Shown here piece by piece: positions 11,960 through 55,384 of a DNA stretch of 64,000 nt. Numbering within the stretch: position 1 is the stretch's first letter; each line of letters starts with the position of its first letter. The stretch spans positions 52,096,901 through 52,160,900 of the forward strand of contig JASCQW010000098.1 in the NCBI GenBank assembly GCA_030264375.1, written 5' to 3'. The translations under genes were made by a program, and so were the position numbers. The notes below the pieces were generated by a model, which worked only from the letters and a program-made list of their open reading frames with translations, did not search any database and was not told the DNA's origin. Source of the DNA: Carcharhinus longimanus. Taxonomy: Eukaryota.

Positions 11960-12380
11960 GTAAGAGCTCCCTTTAACACTTGTTGGCCACAGGGGTAACT
12001 GTCTTCAGGAGCTTTTCACTCCTGTCTACAGGACACATGAGTACCAAAATCTGAATTTATGTTCAGCGGTAAAGACAAGAAGCATTATCAGTGCTTAATG
12101 AGGCGCTGATTGGTTATAAAAGACTGTAAATTAACCTGGGTGGTGCTTTAGTGGTAACGTTACCAGATTAGTAATCGCTGAGACCCAGGCTAATGCCCTG
12201 GGAACATGGTACAGCTGATGGAATTTACATTTAATTGATAAATATTTAATATAAAGTTAGTTTGAGTAATAGCGAACACAAAATTGTCATTTTAAAAAAC
12301 CATCAGATTGACCAATGCCCTTTAGAGAAATTGTGGTCCTTATCTAGTCTGACTGCTACTCACAGCAACGTGTTGACTGA

Positions 12381-12464
12381 CTTGAGGAAGGAACAGTGCT
12401 CCGAAAGCTCATGATTTCAAATAAACCTGTTGGACTTTAACCTGGTGTTGTGAGACTTCTTACT
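12381..12464 (+). mobile_element. Penelope-type terminal repeat with a degenerate hammerhead core, nested in a SINE (about 12140-12540)
   Basis: TTGAGGA-aggaacagtgctcc-GAAAGCTC plus the same tail as 27061-27146; core position C3 is mutated. Confidence 0.65.
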
Positions 12465-23466: not shown

Positions 23467-25069
23467 AACCATTCCCGATCTGACGACAACTGGATAGATA
23501 AGAATGGAGCTAGGCGAGTGCAGCCCCACCTAATCCCAATGACAAGGGAAAGACACTGGAGGAGATTGCAGACAGGTTGAGAAGAATGAGGAGAGATACT
23601 TTAACATGGTCAGTCACATTAGATGTAATCTGTAACTTGATTAAGAGACATTTTTATACTATAGAAAGATTCAACCATAAAGGTCTGGAAGTGACAGGCA
23701 CTGGTTTAGGAGGTGATAGCACGTTCAATAGTTTTGTGAGGAAAGAGGAGTTTGAGGTGGGGCAGTGGTTTGTACTGAGGGTTCAAGGATTTTTTTTAAA
23801 GAAGGCTGATGACAACAGATTTGAAAAGGTGGGGCTGCCCTGAGGAGGGAGAGTACTTGAATGTCAGGAGTCTAGTGGGAATCAGATCAAGGATGCAGGA
23901 GCTGGCTTGCATGGACAAAATGAGGTTGGAGTGGACAGGAGGGGAGATAGATTGAAAAGGAGAAAACTTAGAGATAGGGTGGGAGGAGCACCTTAGAGAA
24001 TTTTTTTCCTGGTTGGCTAAGCGGAAGGAAGGGAAGCTGATGGTATAGTGCCTTAGAATGTTGCAAGAAGCCTAAGTGACACTGATGTATTGCTATGCAA
24101 CCCAAAAAGAACCTTGTATGAGTTGTTGCTATGGCACCTCATGAATCAGGAGACATACATACAGCGACATTGTTGCCTGGGAGAGTTACTAATATCAGTA
24201 TTTAGAAAATATTCAATGACATTTATTCCCAGGAGGAGTGACAGATGTAAATTACAACACAGCATTAGATAGAATGGAATATATTGATTTTTAAAAATCA
24301 TGCCATCAAAGTACACCATAGTTGTAAATTAATTTGAGTTATTATCACTCCTAATAAATTAGGTTGCCTGATCGCAAGTGATCCTACACATTCAGGGAAT
24401 ATTACTCAAATGTTCGGCTCTCATTTTTATTGTTTCAATTATCCTCCTCTTTTAAGATGCTCTTCATCAGGAGGACTGAACAAATTTTAAAATTTTAACT
24501 AAATAACATATGTATCTATAGATGTTCTATTAGGCACCAATATTGAATATTGATTAAGCCATTAGTTAATTATAACAGCAAGATAGAATTTACAAGCAAA
24601 GATTGATATATTTAATGCTGCTGTAGATACCATTGCTTAAAGCCTTAAAAAGATTATTCCTCTTTCTAACAATTTTGGGTTACATTAACTTCAAAGTAAT
24701 GTGAAAGAAACATTTTACAAAACTTATTTAACCCAAGTTTTTTATGGGACAATTTCAGTTCTGCAAATCCATGGACAGAATCTTTACTGACCCAACCTGT
24801 AGCAAGTAGTCAAGAGAGTTGGGTGGTGAGGGGCAGACACAATTCAGGATTCCTCCATGGTCCATGTTTCTGTCATTAGTGATTGCTTCCCCACTTGAAG
24901 GCCTAGCATGTTTGATAGATGGGCCTTCAGTCCAGGGTGGGAGGGTGCCATCCCTTCCAGTCAGCAGGGAAGCCTACACTGGCAACAGGGAGTGCATTAG
25001 TGGTTGGAAAGGATGCAGCTAGACATGCAGGGCATCAAGCTAACAGCGGGGATCAATCATTCCCCTGCC

Positions 25070-26855
25070 TTTTCCCATCTCCTGCACATTGTTTCTATTC
25101 AAGTATTCATTTAATGACCTTTTAAATGCTTCAATCGAACCTGCCTCCTCCATACTCCCAAGCAGCGCATTCCAGACCTGGACGACTCTTTATGTAATCT
25201 ATCTTTTTCTCACATCACATTTGCTTCTTTTACAAATCAAGCTAAATCTGTGCCCTCTTATTCTTGATCCTGTTACAATTGAGAACAGTTTCTTCCTATC
25301 TACTCTGTCTCGACCTCTCAAGATCTTGAACATTTCTATCAAATCTCCTCTTAGCCTTCTTCGCTCCTAGGGGAACAATCCCAATCTCTCTGATCTATCC
25401 TCATAACTGAATTTTCTCATCCCTGGAACCATTCTTGTAAATATTTTCTGCACTCTTTCCAATGCATTCACATCCTTTTTATAGTCTGGTGTCCAGGACT
25501 GTACACAATATTCCAGCTGAGATCCAACTAGTATCTTGTATAAGTTCAGGATAACCTATTGCTCATGTACACTACATCCCTATTAATAAAGCCCAGGATA
25601 CTATGTGCTCATTAACTGCTTTCTCCACCTATCCTGCTATCTTCAAGGACCTACGTGGAGATATTCCCGTGTCCCGTCTGTTCCAGCACCCCATTAAGGA
25701 TTTTACCCCTTATTTTATATTGTGTCTCCACATTCTTCCCACCAAAATGCATATCTCACACTTCTCAGCATTGAACTTCGTTTGCCACATTTCTACTACG
25801 CCACCAACATGTATATGTTCTACACTGTCCTCTGTACAGTTTGCAATGCTTCCAAGTTTTATATCATCCTCAAACTTTGAAACTGTGCCCTGGACATCAA
25901 GATCTAGGTTTTAATATATATAGGAAAAGCAAGGATCCCAATATAACCCCTACAAAACATTGCTTCCTCCAATCCAAAATATATTCATTTATAATTACAT
26001 TCTTATCATTCAGCCAATTTTATATCCATGTTGCTACTGTCCCTTTTATTCCATGGACTATGGTTTTTCTCACAAATTTGTGTGGCACCATGTCAAGTTC
26101 CTTTTGAAAGTCCATGTACACCACATCAACAGCACTAACCTCATTGACCCTTCCTGTTACCTCCTCAAAACCTCCAGCAAGTTAGTGAAATACAATTTCC
26201 CCTTTAGACATCTATGGTGTCTCTTCCTAATTGTAATGACTTTAACTTTTAGAATATGAATGCCCTGCTTAAGGCAGTAATGGCCCAAATAGGGAGCCCT
26301 GCCTGTATGTATAAAGTGGAGTTTACATAAACTCCACGTTTATAATTCGTATGAGGAAGTACCTTTCTGAGTGTTGCTGACCATGTAAATAAACCTAAGT
26401 TTGGTGAAGAGACTCTGGTTTTGAAGCAGTTATCTGGCTAACCAATCCTCATTTTTCCATGTGACTACTAATACTATCCCAAATAATTGTTTCTTGAAGC
26501 TCGCTCACCACTGATGTTAAACTGAGAGACCTATAATTGCTGGGGCTGTCCTTACACATTGTTCATACAAAGGCATAACATTTGTAATTCTCCAATCCTC
26601 TGGCACCCCCCTGAATCTAGNNNNNNNNNNNNNNNNNNNNNNNNNNNNNNNNNNNNNNNNNNNNNNNNNNNNNNNNNNNNNNNNNNNNNNNNNNNNNNNN
26701 NNNNNNNNNNNNNNNNNNNNTCCGCTTTTAATTTAACACTTTCCTTCACCTCCTTCGTTATCCACGGCTTATTACCTCTCCTCCTACTGTCCTTTTTAAC
26801 CATCGGAATAAATTTCTGCTGAGCACCAAGAAAGATCTCCTTAAAGATCCTCCAC
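25070..26855 (-). mobile_element. CR1 LINE fragments (RT C-terminal half and 3' end), with a nested LTR-like insert and a gap
   Basis: The reverse complement encodes CR1-type RT segments (YCVQ.W, RGDLIE.FKI); ORF 26552-26857 contains W..FK..KPWITKEVK. Confidence 0.8.
26232..26444 (+). mobile_element. Candidate short solo LTR inserted in CR1
   Basis: Starts with TG and ends with CA. Internal TATAAA (26310) is followed by AATAAA (26388). It interrupts otherwise contiguous CR1 sequence. Confidence 0.5.
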
Positions 26856-27020
26856 ACAAATTTACTGAGTGAATAAGCTCTACATTAAGTAAATTCATTC
26901 AAAGTATTTAGGATGGTGTGTCTTCTTGGATCAATGATGTGGACATGCCGGTATTGGACTGGTATGGGCACAGTAAGAAGCCTCACAACATCAGGTTAAA
27001 CTCCAACAGATTTATTTAGA

Positions 27021-27058
27021 ATCATGAGCTTTCAGAGTGCTGCTCCTTCATCAGATGA
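27021..27058 (-). ncRNA. Minimal hammerhead ribozyme motif (inverted copy)
   Basis: Minus strand: TCAT-CTGATGA-A-GGAGC(agc)ACTCT-GAAA-GC-TC^ATGA. The core is intact; stem II is weakened by a G-U closing pair and a C/A mismatch. Confidence 0.6.
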
Positions 27059-27097
27059 ATCACCTGATGATGGAGCAGTGCTCCGAAAGCTCGTGAT
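27059..27097 (+). ncRNA. Minimal type I hammerhead ribozyme motif
   Basis: ATCAC-CTGATGA-T-GGAGC(agt)GCTCC-GAAA-GC-TC^GTGAT. Stem I is ATCAC/GTGAT, stem II is 5 bp, stem III is the palindrome AGCT, and the core is complete. Confidence 0.75.
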
Positions 27098-28371
27098 CCC
27101 AGATAAACCTGTTGGAGTTTAATCTGGTGTTATGAGGCTTCTTACTATTCTTGGATCAAGGTTGAGACAACAATATCGCTCTTTGACATTTCAACTGTTC
27201 TGCAATTCTTCTCCCCACTGTCTTTGTCTTTCATTTTTCCACTTGAAATCTGGCCTGTTTGAAAATCTGATGAATCAGATTAGCTTAAAGAAGTGCTTTG
27301 ATAAATGCCAATAATCAGTTCCAGGTAATGTTTCTGTCAGTTATTTCCAAGGCACTAACTGTACTTTCTAACAAAACAATTAATCAGTGGTAGAGTAAAA
27401 ACCCTATACACCTCCACTCCTACTCATCACAAACTGAATTCACAGAAGTAAGTGTATGGAATCTGATCTTACAGCTCAGTAAAGGAGGCTTATATGTCCA
27501 GATGTCACCAGTGAGATTCTTTAGTTAACAAATATTCCTATAATCATGTCCAGGCTATTGACAGGTGCTTGAAAAGCCAGGCAGCATATGCCAAGCCATG
27601 TAAATTTATAAAAGTCATATCTAAAACAGGAGACAATAATATTGTCACTTTTGACTGCTCACTCTATACTGTTGCAATTGTGGTCTTAAATGGCAAAGGT
27701 TGGATGGAAGCCAAAATTCAAAAGGAAAATAAGAGACAAAGTTCCTATTTGACTGCCAGAAATCAAGATCTCACTGATTTCTAGAAGAGAGGAGAATATT
27801 TTGTAGACTTGCTTTTTTCCTCCTCTTAGCCTGAATTTCCTGGAGAGCAATTTTCATAATGATAGCATTTAAGAGGAGGACTGGGCCAGAATTTCTCCAG
27901 CTATTTGCGAGGGGCAGATTCTCCGGCCCAGTTGCAGCTCAACACCTTCTGTGGGTTTCCTGGTGGTGTGGGGTGGCTACAATGGGAAATCCCACTATCA
28001 ATGGCAAGACCAGGACATCCCACGGCAAGCGAACAACATGTTGCTCCTTGTTGCCAAGAAACCAACTGATTTGGGACCAGAGAATTCTGGTCCAGCTCAG
28101 TGAAGTTTCCTGCAGCGAAATGAATGGAACATTGATTTACACCCAGAATGGCCCAAATTCACCTGATATTTGTGTTACTCAGATTTTTTGAGTTTGATGC
28201 TGTAGGAGCAGTTTTCTGAGTTTCAACCCTTGGGACAAATAATTCTAGCCAGGAATTTCTGGAGTAAGTTCCTTTGACTTAACAAATCAGCAAATTATAA
28301 GTAAGCTTCCTACAGTACTGTTACATAGTAATTCCATACCCAGATCTATCCCTTTGCTTTAAGTTCAAGAG

Positions 28372-28689
28372 ACTATCAGAGAATTCCTACAATGTCGATG
28401 GGGCCTATCGAGCCTGCATCAACAACAATCTGACCCAGACCCTATCCCTGTAGTCCCGTGTATTTACCCTGCTAATCCTTCTGACTCAAAGGGGCAATTT
28501 AGCATGGCCAATCAACCCAACCTAATCAACATTTTCAGCATGTGGGAGGAAACCAGAGCACCTGGACGAAACCCACACAAACACACGGAGAACACGTAAA
28601 TTCCATACAGACAGTGACCCGAGGCCGGAATTGAACCTGGGTTCCTGGTACTGTGATGCAGCAGTGCTAACCACTGCGTCACCATGCCA
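28372..28689 (-). mobile_element. HE1-like V-SINE with CR1-derived tail
   Basis: tRNA head and V-domain, then taaattgcccct..gggatagggtctggg..gcaggctcgat tail. Confidence 0.8.
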
Positions 28690-31600
28690 ATACACTAAAC
28701 AAAACCTAATAGTGATGACACTGTAACACTGAAAGATCGGATCAGGAGTGACACAATGTAACTCTTAAGTCAGCAACTGACCAAGTTGCTCTCAAATGCA
28801 GGTCAAGTGTCTTTTTACAATATTTTTTCTACCTTCTTTTTACAGGGTTGAAACTGGTGTTATATTGACAAAGCATTATTGGCTGATAAAGGTTCCCCTT
28901 AACATGAAATGTTTAACAGAATATAGAATTCTATCTTTAAACCATGGAGAAAAAGCCTGCCTGACTGTTACCTACCTTTTGTGAGCCTTTACATAGGTCT
29001 TTGATCATTGATCAAATTTTTGTGTTCTCTTCCCTTATCTCATCCTATGTTGTTCTCATGTTTAGTTCCACAACCCCCATCACTGGCCTTCAAACTAATT
29101 TCCAGGGCCTTATCTGCTGCTAATGTTTAGAGCTGTTCATCAAGCCTGTTAACAGGGTGTTATCATAAATTATCCAGTTCAATTGTCTTCATTTCTTATA
29201 TACTATAATTAACTTTCATATTCTAGTGAGAATTGTTTCTAGCATCTCTTATCAGGAGTTTGATAATCATCTGTATATCTCAAAGCCTTTTATGCCATGG
29301 TCTTGAGATGCATTTGTTTTTCAGTAATGGCCCAGTGGTCCATTCTGGCCCAGGGTCTTACTCACTGGAGAAAAAAACCTTGTTCAGTGCATCATTCAGC
29401 AGTTTGATTTCACTTTGGTAATTCCTATTGTTGGTCATAAATTTGCAACTGGTGCTGGAAACAGAAAGGTCTCATCCCAGCTGTGGCTGAAACTCTCATT
29501 GAAAAGTCACGTCTGGACTTGACAAATATTTCATTTTGCTAACCTCCCATTTTTGGCATTCTATAAATTTCAGCTCATCTAAATTTCTGCTTCCATTTCT
29601 TATCCCACACCAAATCCTGCTCAATCAACACTCTATTGTAGCCTGATGAGTACCTATAAAGACACCAGCAATGCCAAATGGTTAAAAGGGCTAGCTCTGT
29701 ACCAGGCTAAGGACTGTGGGAACAACAAAGGTGTCAGCTATGGAATAAACATGGGAATTGATTGAACAGTGGATGTCATTATGCTATTGAATAGACAGGT
29801 GATTGGACATAGTTCCTTGTGAGTTATGTTTCTGAGAATTACAACCCCCGATAGGGGCACGGCTCAGTATTCATGACCAAAATGAGAGTGCGATTGATTA
29901 CTGGCTGTCCCTGGTGACTGGAAATATAACGAGTATCAGCAGGACCTCGATGAGAAGTTGAGACACAGACATCGTCAGCAATAATCCAGGATTAACCATT
30001 GTAGAGGCAAGGCCCTGAGACCTTGAAACAAAACCCATCTGCTGGGAATCTGATCAGTTTGCCACACCATGGGTGGTATCTTTAAGTTTAATTTATGAGT
30101 TTGAATATTTCATGAAGTTTTGATACTTTTTGAATACTTGTGTTTAGAACGGAGTGGGTCAAAGGTTAATTATTTTGTGTGTAATGAAGTCAGAAATTAA
30201 ATACTTCTTGTGTGTATTGAGGTTTGATACATGATGCAATTTTTTGGTAACTTGTAAAGAACAATAAAAGGAGTTGTTTTGTACAATAATGAGAGTTTGA
30301 GTGCCTTTATCCACAGCATCAGTTGACCAGGGTTTGAGGGCAACACTATTCTTCGGTTCCAAGCACTCAGATTCAAATTTCTCATCTTTGTGTCTTTCAT
30401 TTTTTTCATAGCTTTGCTCCTTCAATTCTATAACTCCTTCAGAGCTCTGCATTCCCAGCTATTAGTGTGTCCCTCAACACTTTTGCCCTAACATCATAAT
30501 TTCTGTAGTTGAGGCCCTAACCTCAGGAATCCATTCCTTACACCTCCCTCACTAAACCCAGCATTCAACCAAAGCTTTTGGTTTTTCTCTCCCTGCTTTA
30601 ACTCAGCATCTATTTTTGTCAGATAATGCCTCTGTGAAACGCTGTTCATTCTTCATGAAAAGAAATACAAATACAAGTTGTTGCTCTGGTTATCAGTGTG
30701 TTTCCACATAAAGACTTAATAGAATAATCTAAAATGAAACACAGTCAGTCACGCATTAAACACAGGAACAAGGGAAAGGGATAAAGGTAGAAAGCGTTAA
30801 TCTGAAGATGAGATGTAATGGGTGCAATGAGTTGATTGGCCCCCTCTTGTGCTGACATTTCTAACTCCTAATGCTATATGCAATCTAGAATCTGTAGTCT
30901 CCAGGGTGCGAGGCTTGCAATGAAGGTTGGCATTTATAAATTTTAAAGCATAATTCAAGCAATTGCCACACATACAAAAGGAAGTCACCTTTTTCATTAC
31001 TTTATTGATTAATATAGCAACATACAGTGCATTAGAAATTGTCTACATTCAAAGCCCACGACAAATTGAAAACATTGATGAATAGCCACTGAATATTAAA
31101 AATAATTTGCAGTGCAGCTTAGTACATTTGATCAATAAGGTATAAAAAGGTGTGTAGTATGAAAAAACCTTCGATCATTGTGCACAAAAATCAGTTCAGA
31201 AAAGTTTATAGATCTGTATAAATGTTATTGTAAGCACTGAAATAGTTCATCTGGCTGGCACTGTGAAAAACGGCAATACATTTCACCCTTTGTTAAATCT
31301 TGCTGTATAAAACTAGAAAGTTCAGACATTTTGCACAGCACATGCTATGATCATTTTCAGAGCTACCAAGCATTAAAACAAATCATTCTAAATTTTGACA
31401 CTGATTTTTACATTCATGTTAATTTTATGTAGACTGTTTCATTCAAAAGCAATTACATATGCATGATTATGTTTTGTGGCCAAATAATGTTTTTTTTGTC
31501 TTTGCTAGCCAACAGTAACTTGCTCATTTCCTTTTGAATAGATATTTACTTAATACAGCTGCAGAAAGGTCAGCTGGCGAAATATCAAGATGTTTAATTC

Positions 31601-41293: not shown

Positions 41294-42412
41294 TCATCCA
41301 TCTCTACAATCAGCATAATTTCCTTTGATCCAGAAACAAATCTGTGCATATTTCAGAGGGGTGATGCGAACCGCCACATTGTAATCCTGCTGCATACCAT
41401 TCTTATCCACCCATTGGTGTCCTGAAAATATTCCAATCACTTTTCGCTCCCATTTCCGACTGTGCCTTTTCCACATTCGGATGTAAACACCTGAGCCACT
41501 GGCTCCTGGCTGAGCATCACAGTGCTGATACAGGAGGTCAGAGGTTTCATCTTTAACCAAGCAGAAACGATAGACGAGATCTCCTGGTCGATCATTGTCA
41601 AATCCAGAAAAGTGAATCCTGCCACCAGGCAGTCTTCCCAGAGGAGGAGTAATTCCTATTTTCATGAAGGGTTTCTTGTGAGGTCTTTTTAGTTCCAGAA
41701 GTGCGTAGTCATAATCCATGCCAATATCGTTTGCTGAACCTTTAATCCATCCTTTTGGAACATGTGTCCGCTTTACTCGTATCCAATGGAACCTAGGTTT
41801 TTCTGGAGAAAGGAAGCTGGATTTATTCGTGGCTTTCCCAGTCTCCTTTTGTTTTGGTTTAAAAAATCCAACTTTCATCTTTTGGGCACCCTTCACATAG
41901 TTCTTGCCATCATGAATACAGTGAGCAGCAGTTAGGACATGCTTCTCAGCTACTAAAGTTCCAGTGCAACCTGTGGAGATTTTCACGGATGTTGAGAAAG
42001 GATAGTTGAATAGAAAGTTTTTTGCCAAGATGCTGAATCGGCCATCCAGGCCAAAGATTTGCCTTTTTGCTCTTCGACCACTCCCGTGATTCTGTTGGTT
42101 TATCAAATCGGCAGCATTGAAGCCATAGATGTCCACATTTGTGAGAGTCCTACTTCCGTTTAGGTATAGAGTTTCATAAGACAAATATTCTTTTAGGTCT
42201 TCGTATGTTGGTAGAGGTGCTCTTTTGTGGCACTCTAATTCACACGGAGATGTTACTTCTAGCTTTGCTTTGCCTTTAAAATGCGCTGTCTCCAGTGCCA
42301 CAGTCTCTTGAGGCAAAACAGCAGGTATGTAAGTTTTCTGCCATTCTGCCTTAAGCATTATCACATGCTTAATGGAACAAAGAAAAATGACTAGTGCTGG
42401 CGCTGTTACCAT
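41294..42412 (-). CDS. PRSS23: Serine protease 23 (trypsin-like S1 family), single coding exon, 372 aa
   Basis: Translation matches vertebrate PRSS23 as I recall it: LSYETLY, furin site RRAKR|QIFG, YPFSTSVK, catalytic His TAAHC, Asp DYALLEL, Ser GASGS, C-terminus YAQICFWIKGNYADCRDG. The likely start is Met37 of the 408-aa ORF (ctcaccATGg, strong Kozak), followed by the hydrophobic signal MVTAPALVIFLCSI. Confidence 0.96.
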   Translation of the reverse strand: MVTAPALVIFLCSIKHVIMLKAEWQKTYIPAVLPQETVALETAHFKGKAKLEVTSPCELECHKRAPLPTYEDLKEYLSYETLYLNGSRTLTNVDIYGFNAADLINQQNHGSGRRAKRQIFGLDGRFSILAKNFLFNYPFSTSVKISTGCTGTLVAEKHVLTAAHCIHDGKNYVKGAQKMKVGFFKPKQKETGKATNKSSFLSPEKPRFHWIRVKRTHVPKGWIKGSANDIGMDYDYALLELKRPHKKPFMKIGITPPLGRLPGGRIHFSGFDNDRPGDLVYRFCLVKDETSDLLYQHCDAQPGASGSGVYIRMWKRHSRKWERKVIGIFSGHQWVDKNGMQQDYNVAVRITPLKYAQICFWIKGNYADCRDG

Positions 42413-42428
42413 GGTGAGTGGCGATTTG

Positions 42429-42457
42429 CTGTTGAAAAAAAAGACTTTGGTTAGTGC
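42429..42457 (-). promoter_or_regulatory. PRSS23: Splice acceptor of the PRSS23 coding exon (branch point, polypyrimidine tract, AG)
   Basis: Minus strand reads CACTAAC-caaagtc-TTTTTTTTCAACAG|caaatcgccactcaccATG. The exon starts at 42428, 16 nt before the ATG. Confidence 0.85.
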
Positions 42458-42589
42458 TTTTAATAACTTCATTTCCTTGCGCCAGCTCCAAAAATTAACT
42501 CCTAAAGTGATAACATTCATGAAATACTAATGTGACAGCTGGATAGCACCACACTCTGCTGATTGTTAATGCAAGTTCTCTTTCTGCAT

Positions 42590-53540: not shown

Positions 53541-54134
53541 AACTGCATGTTATGACTCAATCAAATCCCCCTCCCACATTTCATAACAGCAGCCATCTCC
53601 ACCCAAAAAGTGGAAAGGAACAGGGGACCATCAGGACATGACCTAGTACTACCCCCATGTGAATAGAATACCGTGAGCACTGGAGATCTGAAATGAAAGC
53701 AGAAGTGCTGGGTAAACTCTAACAGGTATGGCAGCTTCAAAGCTTGATGAGCAGTTATGAAAACTTGAGCTTGTTGTGTGTTTATGTAACTTATGTACAT
53801 ATTGCCATCCTCCCGCTATAATCTACCAACTGAAAAAATTCTATCAATAGAATCTAGTCCTCTCATCGATTTGAAGACCTCAAATCTGTGCTTTTTTTTA
53901 AAGAAAAAGTGGAAAAAGCATTATGCTTTAACCTACGCTTAATGCTCTTTCCACTCACATTGTCAGCATCTTTAAGACTTGAATAGCAGGTTAGTTGTAA
54001 AGACTCGCATTCTNNNNNNNNNNNNNNNNNNNNNNNNNNNNNNNNNNNNNNNNNNNNNNNNNNNNNNNNNNNNNNNNNNNNNNNNNNNNNNNNNNNNNNN
54101 NNNNNNNNNNNNNTGTCTGAGGCCAGAACTCTCC

Positions 54135-54174
54135 ATTCACCTGATGAAGGGACAAACCCCGAAAGCTTGTGAGT
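54135..54174 (+). ncRNA. Minimal hammerhead ribozyme motif in a Penelope-type terminal repeat (repeat extends to about 54229)
   Basis: ATTCAC-CTGATGA-A-GGG(acaaac)CCC-GAAA-GC-TT^GTGAGT, followed by the same aataaa..gttggact..cctggtgttgt..gacttcttact tail as the 27-kb copy. Confidence 0.65.
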
Positions 54175-55384
54175 TTACTATCAAATAAATTGGTTGGACT
54201 TAAAACCTGGTGTTGTCAGACTTCTTACTTTTTTTAAGAGACTCAGTTAACTACTTCGGTTTTCCTTTTTAATCAAGGTTTTGGTCACCCTTTTCAAAAG
54301 CACTGCTAATCCTCAAACTTGTTGCTTTTTTTGTGCAATGTTGTAATCCTATTTTAATCCAGTGCTGTCTCTACTTTCTGGTGTGAGCTCCAGATTGGAT
54401 TTTCTGTTTTTCCATGGAATGTATTTTGGTTAAACATTTTGGATTGTTTATTAAAATCTCTCTCACTGTTCATTTACAGCCAAACCTTTTGGCTCTATTT
54501 ATTTAATTTGCCTTAGCCAGTTCTCCCCTCATTCCTATACCTCTAAGCCAGTGACATTAAAGGCACCATAAATTCAAACTGCTGTCAGTATCAGTTTAGT
54601 TGCTTTCCCCTGAACCTTTTTCTTGGCTTCCATAGTGCCACGAATACACCATTAAAAAGGAGCAAAACCCAAGTATTCTAGATGTGACCTAACCGAGATA
54701 TTACACAAGGAATGCATTTGGTTTTGTATTTGGACTGTCGTAACAATACATCCTAACGCTCAATTTACGTATAATGGAGTCATTCTTGTTCTTGGTCCTC
54801 CCTCCATTCTAGATGACATTCTTCCCTTTTGCTAGAGTTTATTCTGACATTTGACTTCATAACTCATATTTCCTCCCTCTCTCCAGTTGACTCCACTGCC
54901 TCCTGGCTCAGCACCTGCTGGGGCACTCAGTTCATACCAGCAATGTTGTAACCCTAGTCCGTTTGTTACTTTTTAAACTTCATGCAAACATTCCATCTCT
55001 CTCCTCCTACAAATCATTGACAAACTGCCAGATCCTCCCTTCTGAATTCACAATGCCATCTTTCCATAACCTTCATGCCAGGATCTTTCAACTACCTCCT
55101 ATTTGCACACTCTTCCACGCATAGATCCCTACCCCCATGGTACCAAAGTGCAATGTGGGTGTGAATTCTAGTTTCTTCAAACTCCTTGCAGGAATTCTGA
55201 CCCAAAGCAGCACTGCAGCTCTCTGGATGAGGAGATTGGACTGTGAATGGTTCTAAATGAAAAAGTAAGTTAAACATGTACACCAAGTCCATATACCACA
55301 TACCCAGATACTCCTGGGGTCACTTAATTTAGCTCCATTCACAACAATCATTCTCAATATGGACATAATTTTTTTCCCATTGGA

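Follow-up and report, generated by a model that had tools for sequence, protein, structure and literature searches.

Two head-to-head Penelope-like element ends in Carcharhinus longimanus, likely built at insertion by priming from both nicked target strands

The window analysed here, a stretch of 64,000 nucleotides of Carcharhinus longimanus DNA (contig JASCQW010000098.1 of assembly GCA_030264375.1), contains an insertion flanked by an exact 12-bp target site duplication (TSD), TTCTTGGATCAA, at positions 26923-26934 and 27148-27159 of the forward strand, as had been proposed in the original prediction. The two copies enclose an interval of 213 bp, and the base A26934 is common to the left copy and the element end. 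The insert consists of two 5'-truncated copies of the 3' end (pLTR) of a Penelope-like element (PLE) alone, with no ORF. The left arm (26972-27058, reverse strand) is an inverted copy, extended outwards by a PLE tail (26934-26971, reverse strand; family positions ~+84 to +121) that is present on this arm only and brings it to the distal, or long, 3' end of the family at +121; tail included, it differs from the family reference at 12 of 121 nt. The right arm (27060-27147, forward strand) is a sense copy without a tail, which stops at the proximal, or short, 3' end at +83/84 and shows 9 differences from the reference over 84 nt. The tail was called from the descriptions of PLE tails in PMC11167929 and PMC8557442. 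The locus is one old, decaying insertion that is now dead.

The insertion had been described as palindromic over all of its 213 bp. The inverted repeat is real, with arms of 87 nt each (26972-27058 and 27060-27146) that are 85% complementary and separated by 1 nt, but the palindromic part measures only 175 bp, and positions 26935-26971 (37-38 bp) lie outside it, as the single-copy PLE tail. At the head-to-head junction (27055-27063, unstranded) both arms stop at about -4 to -6, and thus terminate at the RNA start predicted from TATA-like and Inr-like motifs. The 237-nt stretch has a minimum free energy (MFE) of -140.4 kcal/mol (z -16.8), and none of 200 shuffled sequences was as stable.

Contigs from organism D bridged both insertion junctions and organism E the left one, indicating that the insertion predates those splits. 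At the right junction, the element side in organisms B and E spans only 29 and 24 letters, below our bridging rule; organism C has no cover of the junctions, and no empty site was seen in any of the 8 runs compared. An unrelated locus (L010:1501-1738) carries a 12-bp TSD one base off that of the window, and the left TSD copy of organism E has that base; this near-match is likely due to BLAST selection among many copies, or else to target preference. A fragment of a very high-copy repeat lies just left of the insertion (26730-26855). In Pfam searches of 120 of the 138 window frames of at least 75 aa, the only matches were a trypsin-like ORF at a distance of 14 kb and a short reverse transcriptase (RT) piece. 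The former (41297-42526, reverse strand) is a single-exon frame of 410 aa for a trypsin-like serine protease (Pfam Trypsin, E 8.6e-10), presumably of the PRSS23/PRSS35 type. PRSS23/PRSS35 genes sit within or beside malic-enzyme genes, and the window may thus be intronic.

Within the palindrome, we identified the two divergent hammerhead cores that had been predicted, at 27064-27091 (forward strand) and 27027-27054 (reverse strand); the core pattern has 3 matches in the window, against 0.00 expected. The motif is, as previously suggested, that of minimal type I hammerheads with a palindromic AGCU stem III, as defined in PMC4209133. The forward motif (27059-27097) is complete, with the core, an extra nucleotide after A9, a stem II of 5 bp and the AGCU stem III, and its predicted cut after C27092 falls on the correct H17 position in canonical numbering, as anticipated. 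The reverse motif (27022-27058, predicted cut between 27026 and 27025) is damaged in stem II by a G-U closing pair (10.1-11.1) and a C-A mismatch, and has an MFE of -4.5 versus -11.7 for the forward arm. The 5-bp stem I originally given for one of the cores needs correction: stem I of the family has 4 bp (TCAC/GTGA), and a fifth pair in the forward arm relies on the junction base A27059. An Rfam scan of positions 25000-29000 matched no hammerhead model, and three miRNA-precursor matches, far under the gathering score, were read as generic hairpin matches. The expected competition between hairpin and ribozyme was recovered in the predicted fold, which leaves the core at most 5% unpaired, with predicted costs of opening it of 18.6 and 24.1 kcal/mol, one per strand; a transcript from either direction encounters the antisense arm first. 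Cleavage at the window locus is predicted to be unlikely, with the ribozyme buried in a long hairpin, and the ribozyme is a property of the parent element, not of the palindrome.

Both arms represent the pLTR of a PLE with an RT, a GIY-YIG endonuclease (EN) and a Neptune/Nematis-type Cys linker. The PLE origin originally put forward was confirmed by longer copies, in which the arms are collinear with an RT-EN ORF: upstream of the arm lie ~300 nt of shared non-coding sequence, then a GIY-YIG frame and then an RT frame, both on the strand of the arm, and the order RT, EN, pLTR body and arm is found in L122, L127, L130, L138, L147, L167 and others. Of 50 loci anchored on the RT, many had it upstream of the repeat in the same orientation, and Pfam RVT_1 matched three of three RT frames (E 3.7e-10 to 1.9e-6). 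The GIY-YIG motif is legible after the RT in L122, and there were 31 tblastn matches; the Pfam endonuclease match was weak (E 0.012, under the cut-off), and two other EN fragments had none. The linker form CX4CxxC, or one close to it, was kept in 20 of the 31 matches (two loci counted twice). CX2-5CxxC in the RT-EN linker is a mark of the Neptune and Nematis clades (PMC8557442), and the motif accordingly points to an element of Neptune/Nematis type, the two not being separated. No intact autonomous copy was found in 20 regions picked mainly for their long reported frames; these frames were mostly runs of N, and the longest genuine stop-free frame had 498 aa. One read run presumed to be RNA contained the family as short pieces only.

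Exact matches in the genome (2.68 Gb) numbered 17,351 for an arm 31-mer, 11,614 for the core 16-mer and 5,095 for the core plus upstream pLTR sequence. In 256 kb picked by place, the window included, we counted 18 arms, suggesting a family size in the region of 10^5 arms. The window holds another, single and tail-less arm that begins just before the core (12376-12464, forward strand), and a pLTR copy from another subfamily that is longer and older (53926-54229, forward strand), has a different stem II loop and is broken by an N gap. With C3 of the core set to 0, a TATA-like box lies at -38, the ribozyme extends to +32 and the predicted cut falls at +28/+29. The family has two 3' ends, at ~+84 and ~+121, and the 37-38 nt between them match a PLE tail; over 94 arms, the 3' ends cluster at +75-90 and +115-122. 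An AATAAA lies in the family reference at +37 to +43 (window 27101-27107, decayed), 9 nt past the predicted cut.

We identified 580 exact head-to-head centres genome-wide, of which 50 listed palindromes were used for statistics. Their central spacers have 19 different lengths from 2 to 29 nt, with recurring lengths of 15 nt (8 of 50), 11 nt (6 of 50, the class of the window) and 6 nt (6 of 50). TSDs of 9-13 bp rose above threshold in 13 of the 50, versus none of 50 shifted controls, and 37 palindromes had none. Both arms belonged to an identical subfamily class in 32 of the 50; mismatches comprised two single-base discordances between main classes, the remaining palindromes being gapped or decayed, and several subfamilies yielded the identical palindrome shape. 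In a palindrome-enriched sample, pairs within 400 nt were head-to-head in 98 cases and same-strand in 5. No tandem retrozyme arrays were seen, and the window holds a single head-to-head pair. Among 136 arms from sets without a ribozyme anchor, the catalytic G12 was lost in 29 and the CpG guanines +16 and +29 were changed in 33 and 38, in a search whose pattern capped core mismatches and so favours conservation. The core decays neutrally, G12 behaving like other CpG guanines, and a search for covariation in the hammerhead stems of these arms turned up largely CpG decay and few double changes.

The arms combine in a recurrent manner at their 3' ends. In the centre-anchored set (n=50), we found 28 pairs of one long and one short end, 3 of two short ends and 1 of two long ends, with 18 unclassified (p = 9.7e-6 versus 0.5). 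Similarly, 90 loci anchored by one 3' 31-mer had an inverted partner within 120 nt in 36 cases and none detected in 54, by a partner search that misses some visible remnants; of 33 classifiable pairs, 31 were long and short, 2 short and short and none long and long, with the proviso that tail loss could turn a long end into a short one. No long-anchored pair (0 of 14) had two long ends. The +84 end additionally closes arms without a detected partner and ORF-bearing copies. The tail-less arm extends further 5' than the tailed arm in L184, L198, L267, L273, L285 and L286, and also in the ORF-bearing L161, L164 and L168, with the opposite polarity in L146; neither arm is thus a plain copy of the other, and a single folded-back cDNA would need a later deletion. 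Arms of one locus have 46 non-CpG variants in common, where 2000 shuffles gave 19.4 on average and 33 at most; rare shared variants alone number 10, which stays within the range of the shuffles (mean 3.7, maximum 11). In the window, +53G is present on both arms, and on none of 100 other arms. Centres often contain junction inserts repeating nearby element sequence (L328, L338 and L349), and such inserts resemble the templated insertions of polymerase theta end-joining. The one-long-one-short ends suggest that the two sides of the DNA cut likely serve simultaneously for copying one and the same RNA of the element.

At the opposite side of the arms, we mapped 206 5' ends, leaving out 22 arms with Ns: 67 lie 3' of +2, 78 at -8 to +2, 15 at -20 to -9, 17 at -59 to -21 and 29 beyond. 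This peak spans 11 nt, at a distance of ~30-32 nt from the TATA-like box, and falls on a motif that we take to be Inr-like by its consensus, indicating that run-off at the RNA 5' end is likely in the window's subfamily; judged by these motifs, the RNA likely starts at ~-6. The peak accounts for 13 of 32 arms in the window's subfamily and 14 of 93 in its sister, in which 58 of 93 run beyond. Arms retain the whole core, indicating that they were copied from uncleaved templates.

Of 93 arms in the sister subfamily, which is marked by GTGGC past the cut, 8 terminate at most 2 nt from the predicted cut, while the adjoining 21 nt contain 13 ends (post hoc Poisson p 0.004), in a sample of 90 of the first 100 places listed (loci L365-L394 and L425-L514). 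Two palindromes, L430 and L435, are centred exactly on the predicted cut. A genome pattern for cut-site ends gave 76 matches, some of which are short deletions. The subfamily of the window itself showed no peak at the cut site (0 of 32 arms). The sister ends are a possible fossil sign of cleaved RNA as template, and a lead only; they bear on cleavage by PLE hammerheads in vivo, which the RNA-seq analysis described in PMC11167929 did not detect.

We consider that the locus consists of two head-to-head pLTR ends that were probably built at insertion by priming from both nicked target strands. Starting from what is observed (the pLTR identity of the arms, the TSD, the tail on one arm, the recurrence with varied centres and TSDs and the neutral decay), we infer four steps. 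The endonuclease would cut the target with a stagger of ~12 nt, and each 3' OH would prime a cDNA, both copied from one RNA or one source element, with one distal start (+121, with tail) and one proximal start (+84). In the window's subfamily, both cDNAs would often reach ~-6, where an uncleaved RNA from the pLTR promoter with its TATA/Inr-like motifs likely begins, and host end-joining would unite the two cDNA 3' ends via microhomology or short inserts. For an anole PLE in vitro, both strands were cleaved and extended, two RT start sites bounded the tail, unprocessed RNA was used and the protein was predicted to be a dimer (PMC11167929). No strand difference in start site was observed there, and inverted products are not discussed in the text available from that study, which counts against coordinated starts. 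The more specific reading is evenly balanced in our judgement: that these mini-palindromes are an integration record, in which one dimeric RT-EN complex with one RNA primes both strands, always with one cDNA per start site, arm ends marking the RNA start and a fraction of the sister subfamily marking the hammerhead cut.

The original prediction had raised the possibility of a non-autonomous, retrozyme-like mobile unit. That the palindrome itself is such a unit, of retrozyme or MITE type, and is copied in its entirety from master loci, would accommodate the 580 exact centres, the few spacer lengths that repeat (15, 11 and 6 nt) and the fairly uniform size of the best BLAST matches, which are biased by the query; yet there are 19 spacer lengths, centres are mostly unique, the shape arises in several subfamilies whose arms agree with each other, both outer ends fall on the two 3' ends of the parent, same-strand pairs are as rare as 5 versus 98 in the palindrome-enriched sample and the core is not conserved, so that we regard it as very improbable. 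Centres, TSDs and subfamilies differ between copies, and two of the three observations that the prediction itself had named as speaking against a unit were made, namely differing junctions and a decaying core. A MITE of DNA-transposon type was rejected, since the tail makes the ends asymmetric, the TSD varies from 9 to 13 bp and the parent is an RT element. The main rival keeps the PLE origin and has the mirror half made by fold-back or self-priming of the tailed cDNA or of an antisense template, with unequal arms arising by later central deletions. Provided that the tailed arm is the primary one, it accounts just as well for the long and short pairing and for the variants in common, and palindromic junctions underlay the self-priming proposal of PMC3846280; the asymmetric arms could come from later deletion in a fold-back palindrome, and the shared variants from gene conversion. 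Against it, each longer tail-less arm, some reaching whole ORFs, requires a second event, the +84 end is also found on partnerless arms and ORF-bearing copies, and the inserts that centres often carry look more like two ends joined. We therefore consider fold-back an improbable origin, though the least so of the alternatives.

Priming from both strands could also hold while the 5' pile-up reflects a polymerase stop, or an end-joining preference, at hammerhead stems I and II. The 11-nt peak does overlap the 5' strand of stem I, 67 of the 206 ends lie 3' of the peak and another 61 run past it, and the peak is weak in the sister subfamily, which has the same upstream motifs. However, the distance to the TATA-like box and the Inr-like motif fit an RNA start, and an RT, which travels 3' to 5', would be expected to stall at its entry into stem II (+21), a position without a comparable peak; a stop at the stems is thus unlikely.

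The preferred reading, priming from both nicked strands, has a precedent in the twin priming of L1 elements, where cDNA synthesis likewise begins on both target strands and an inversion results when the products are joined. The second L1 primer anneals at an internal site and another part of the RNA is copied from it, whereas here the two strands would yield copies of one 3' segment, and hence a palindrome. We found neither twin priming in PLEs nor this shark family in the literature, although subscription journals, Repbase and supplements may hold both, and the available text of PMC6155905 added nothing on sharks. The architecture of an inverted pLTR, a tail and a TSD is already published. 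Pen2a_Av of Adineta vaga has an inverted pLTR, a tail, a TSD and TATA/Inr motifs, with self-priming on an antisense template proposed (PMC3846280), and a general insertion scheme exists for EN+ PLEs (PMC8557442). The shark insertions resemble these EN+ PLE insertions in the inverted, 5'-truncated pLTR, the tail of 30-40 bp at one end, the variable TSD of ~8-13 bp, the TATA and Inr-like pLTR motif and the palindromic junction, and differ in that the insert consists of two pLTR ends only and, with ~10^5 arms, the pairing of ends can be counted.

Similarly, Poseidon of Anolis carolinensis (PAc) has two internal RT starts bounding the tail, cleaves and extends both strands, carries its hammerhead upstream of the start sites and uses uncleaved RNA as main template (PMC11167929). 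In contrast, the shark family has the Neptune/Nematis Cys linker and probably belongs to another clade, and the text available for PAc reports neither coordination of starts nor inverted products. The ribozyme shares with the minimal type I hammerheads of metazoan PLEs the core, the nucleotide between 9 and 10.1, the G10.1-C11.1 pair and the palindromic 15.2-16.2, and in vitro cleavage by related motifs is weak (PMC4209133). Schistosoma is known to have pairs of motifs, one per strand, at 100-700 bp from each other (PMC4209133), whereas here they lie ~10 nt apart and are fully paired in one hairpin. Non-LTR retrozymes are likewise non-coding, derived from PLE pLTRs and equipped with a type I hammerhead, but are defined as tandem, head-to-tail units with a ribozyme each (bioRxiv 10.64898/2026.07.22.740005); the shark loci are head-to-head pairs with no sign of unit amplification.

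The formation of inverted pLTRs and tails has been named as in need of mechanistic study (PMC8557442), and the value of this locus lies in the data that it provides on how PLEs form inverted pLTRs and a one-sided tail. The pairing of one long with one short end is a sharp prediction, testable in the existing in vitro system for the anole PAc element. If the reading as an integration record is true, the inverted pLTR and the one-sided tail would be explained together, and the cut-site ends of the sister subfamily would provide fossil evidence that PLE ribozymes cleave in germline cells.
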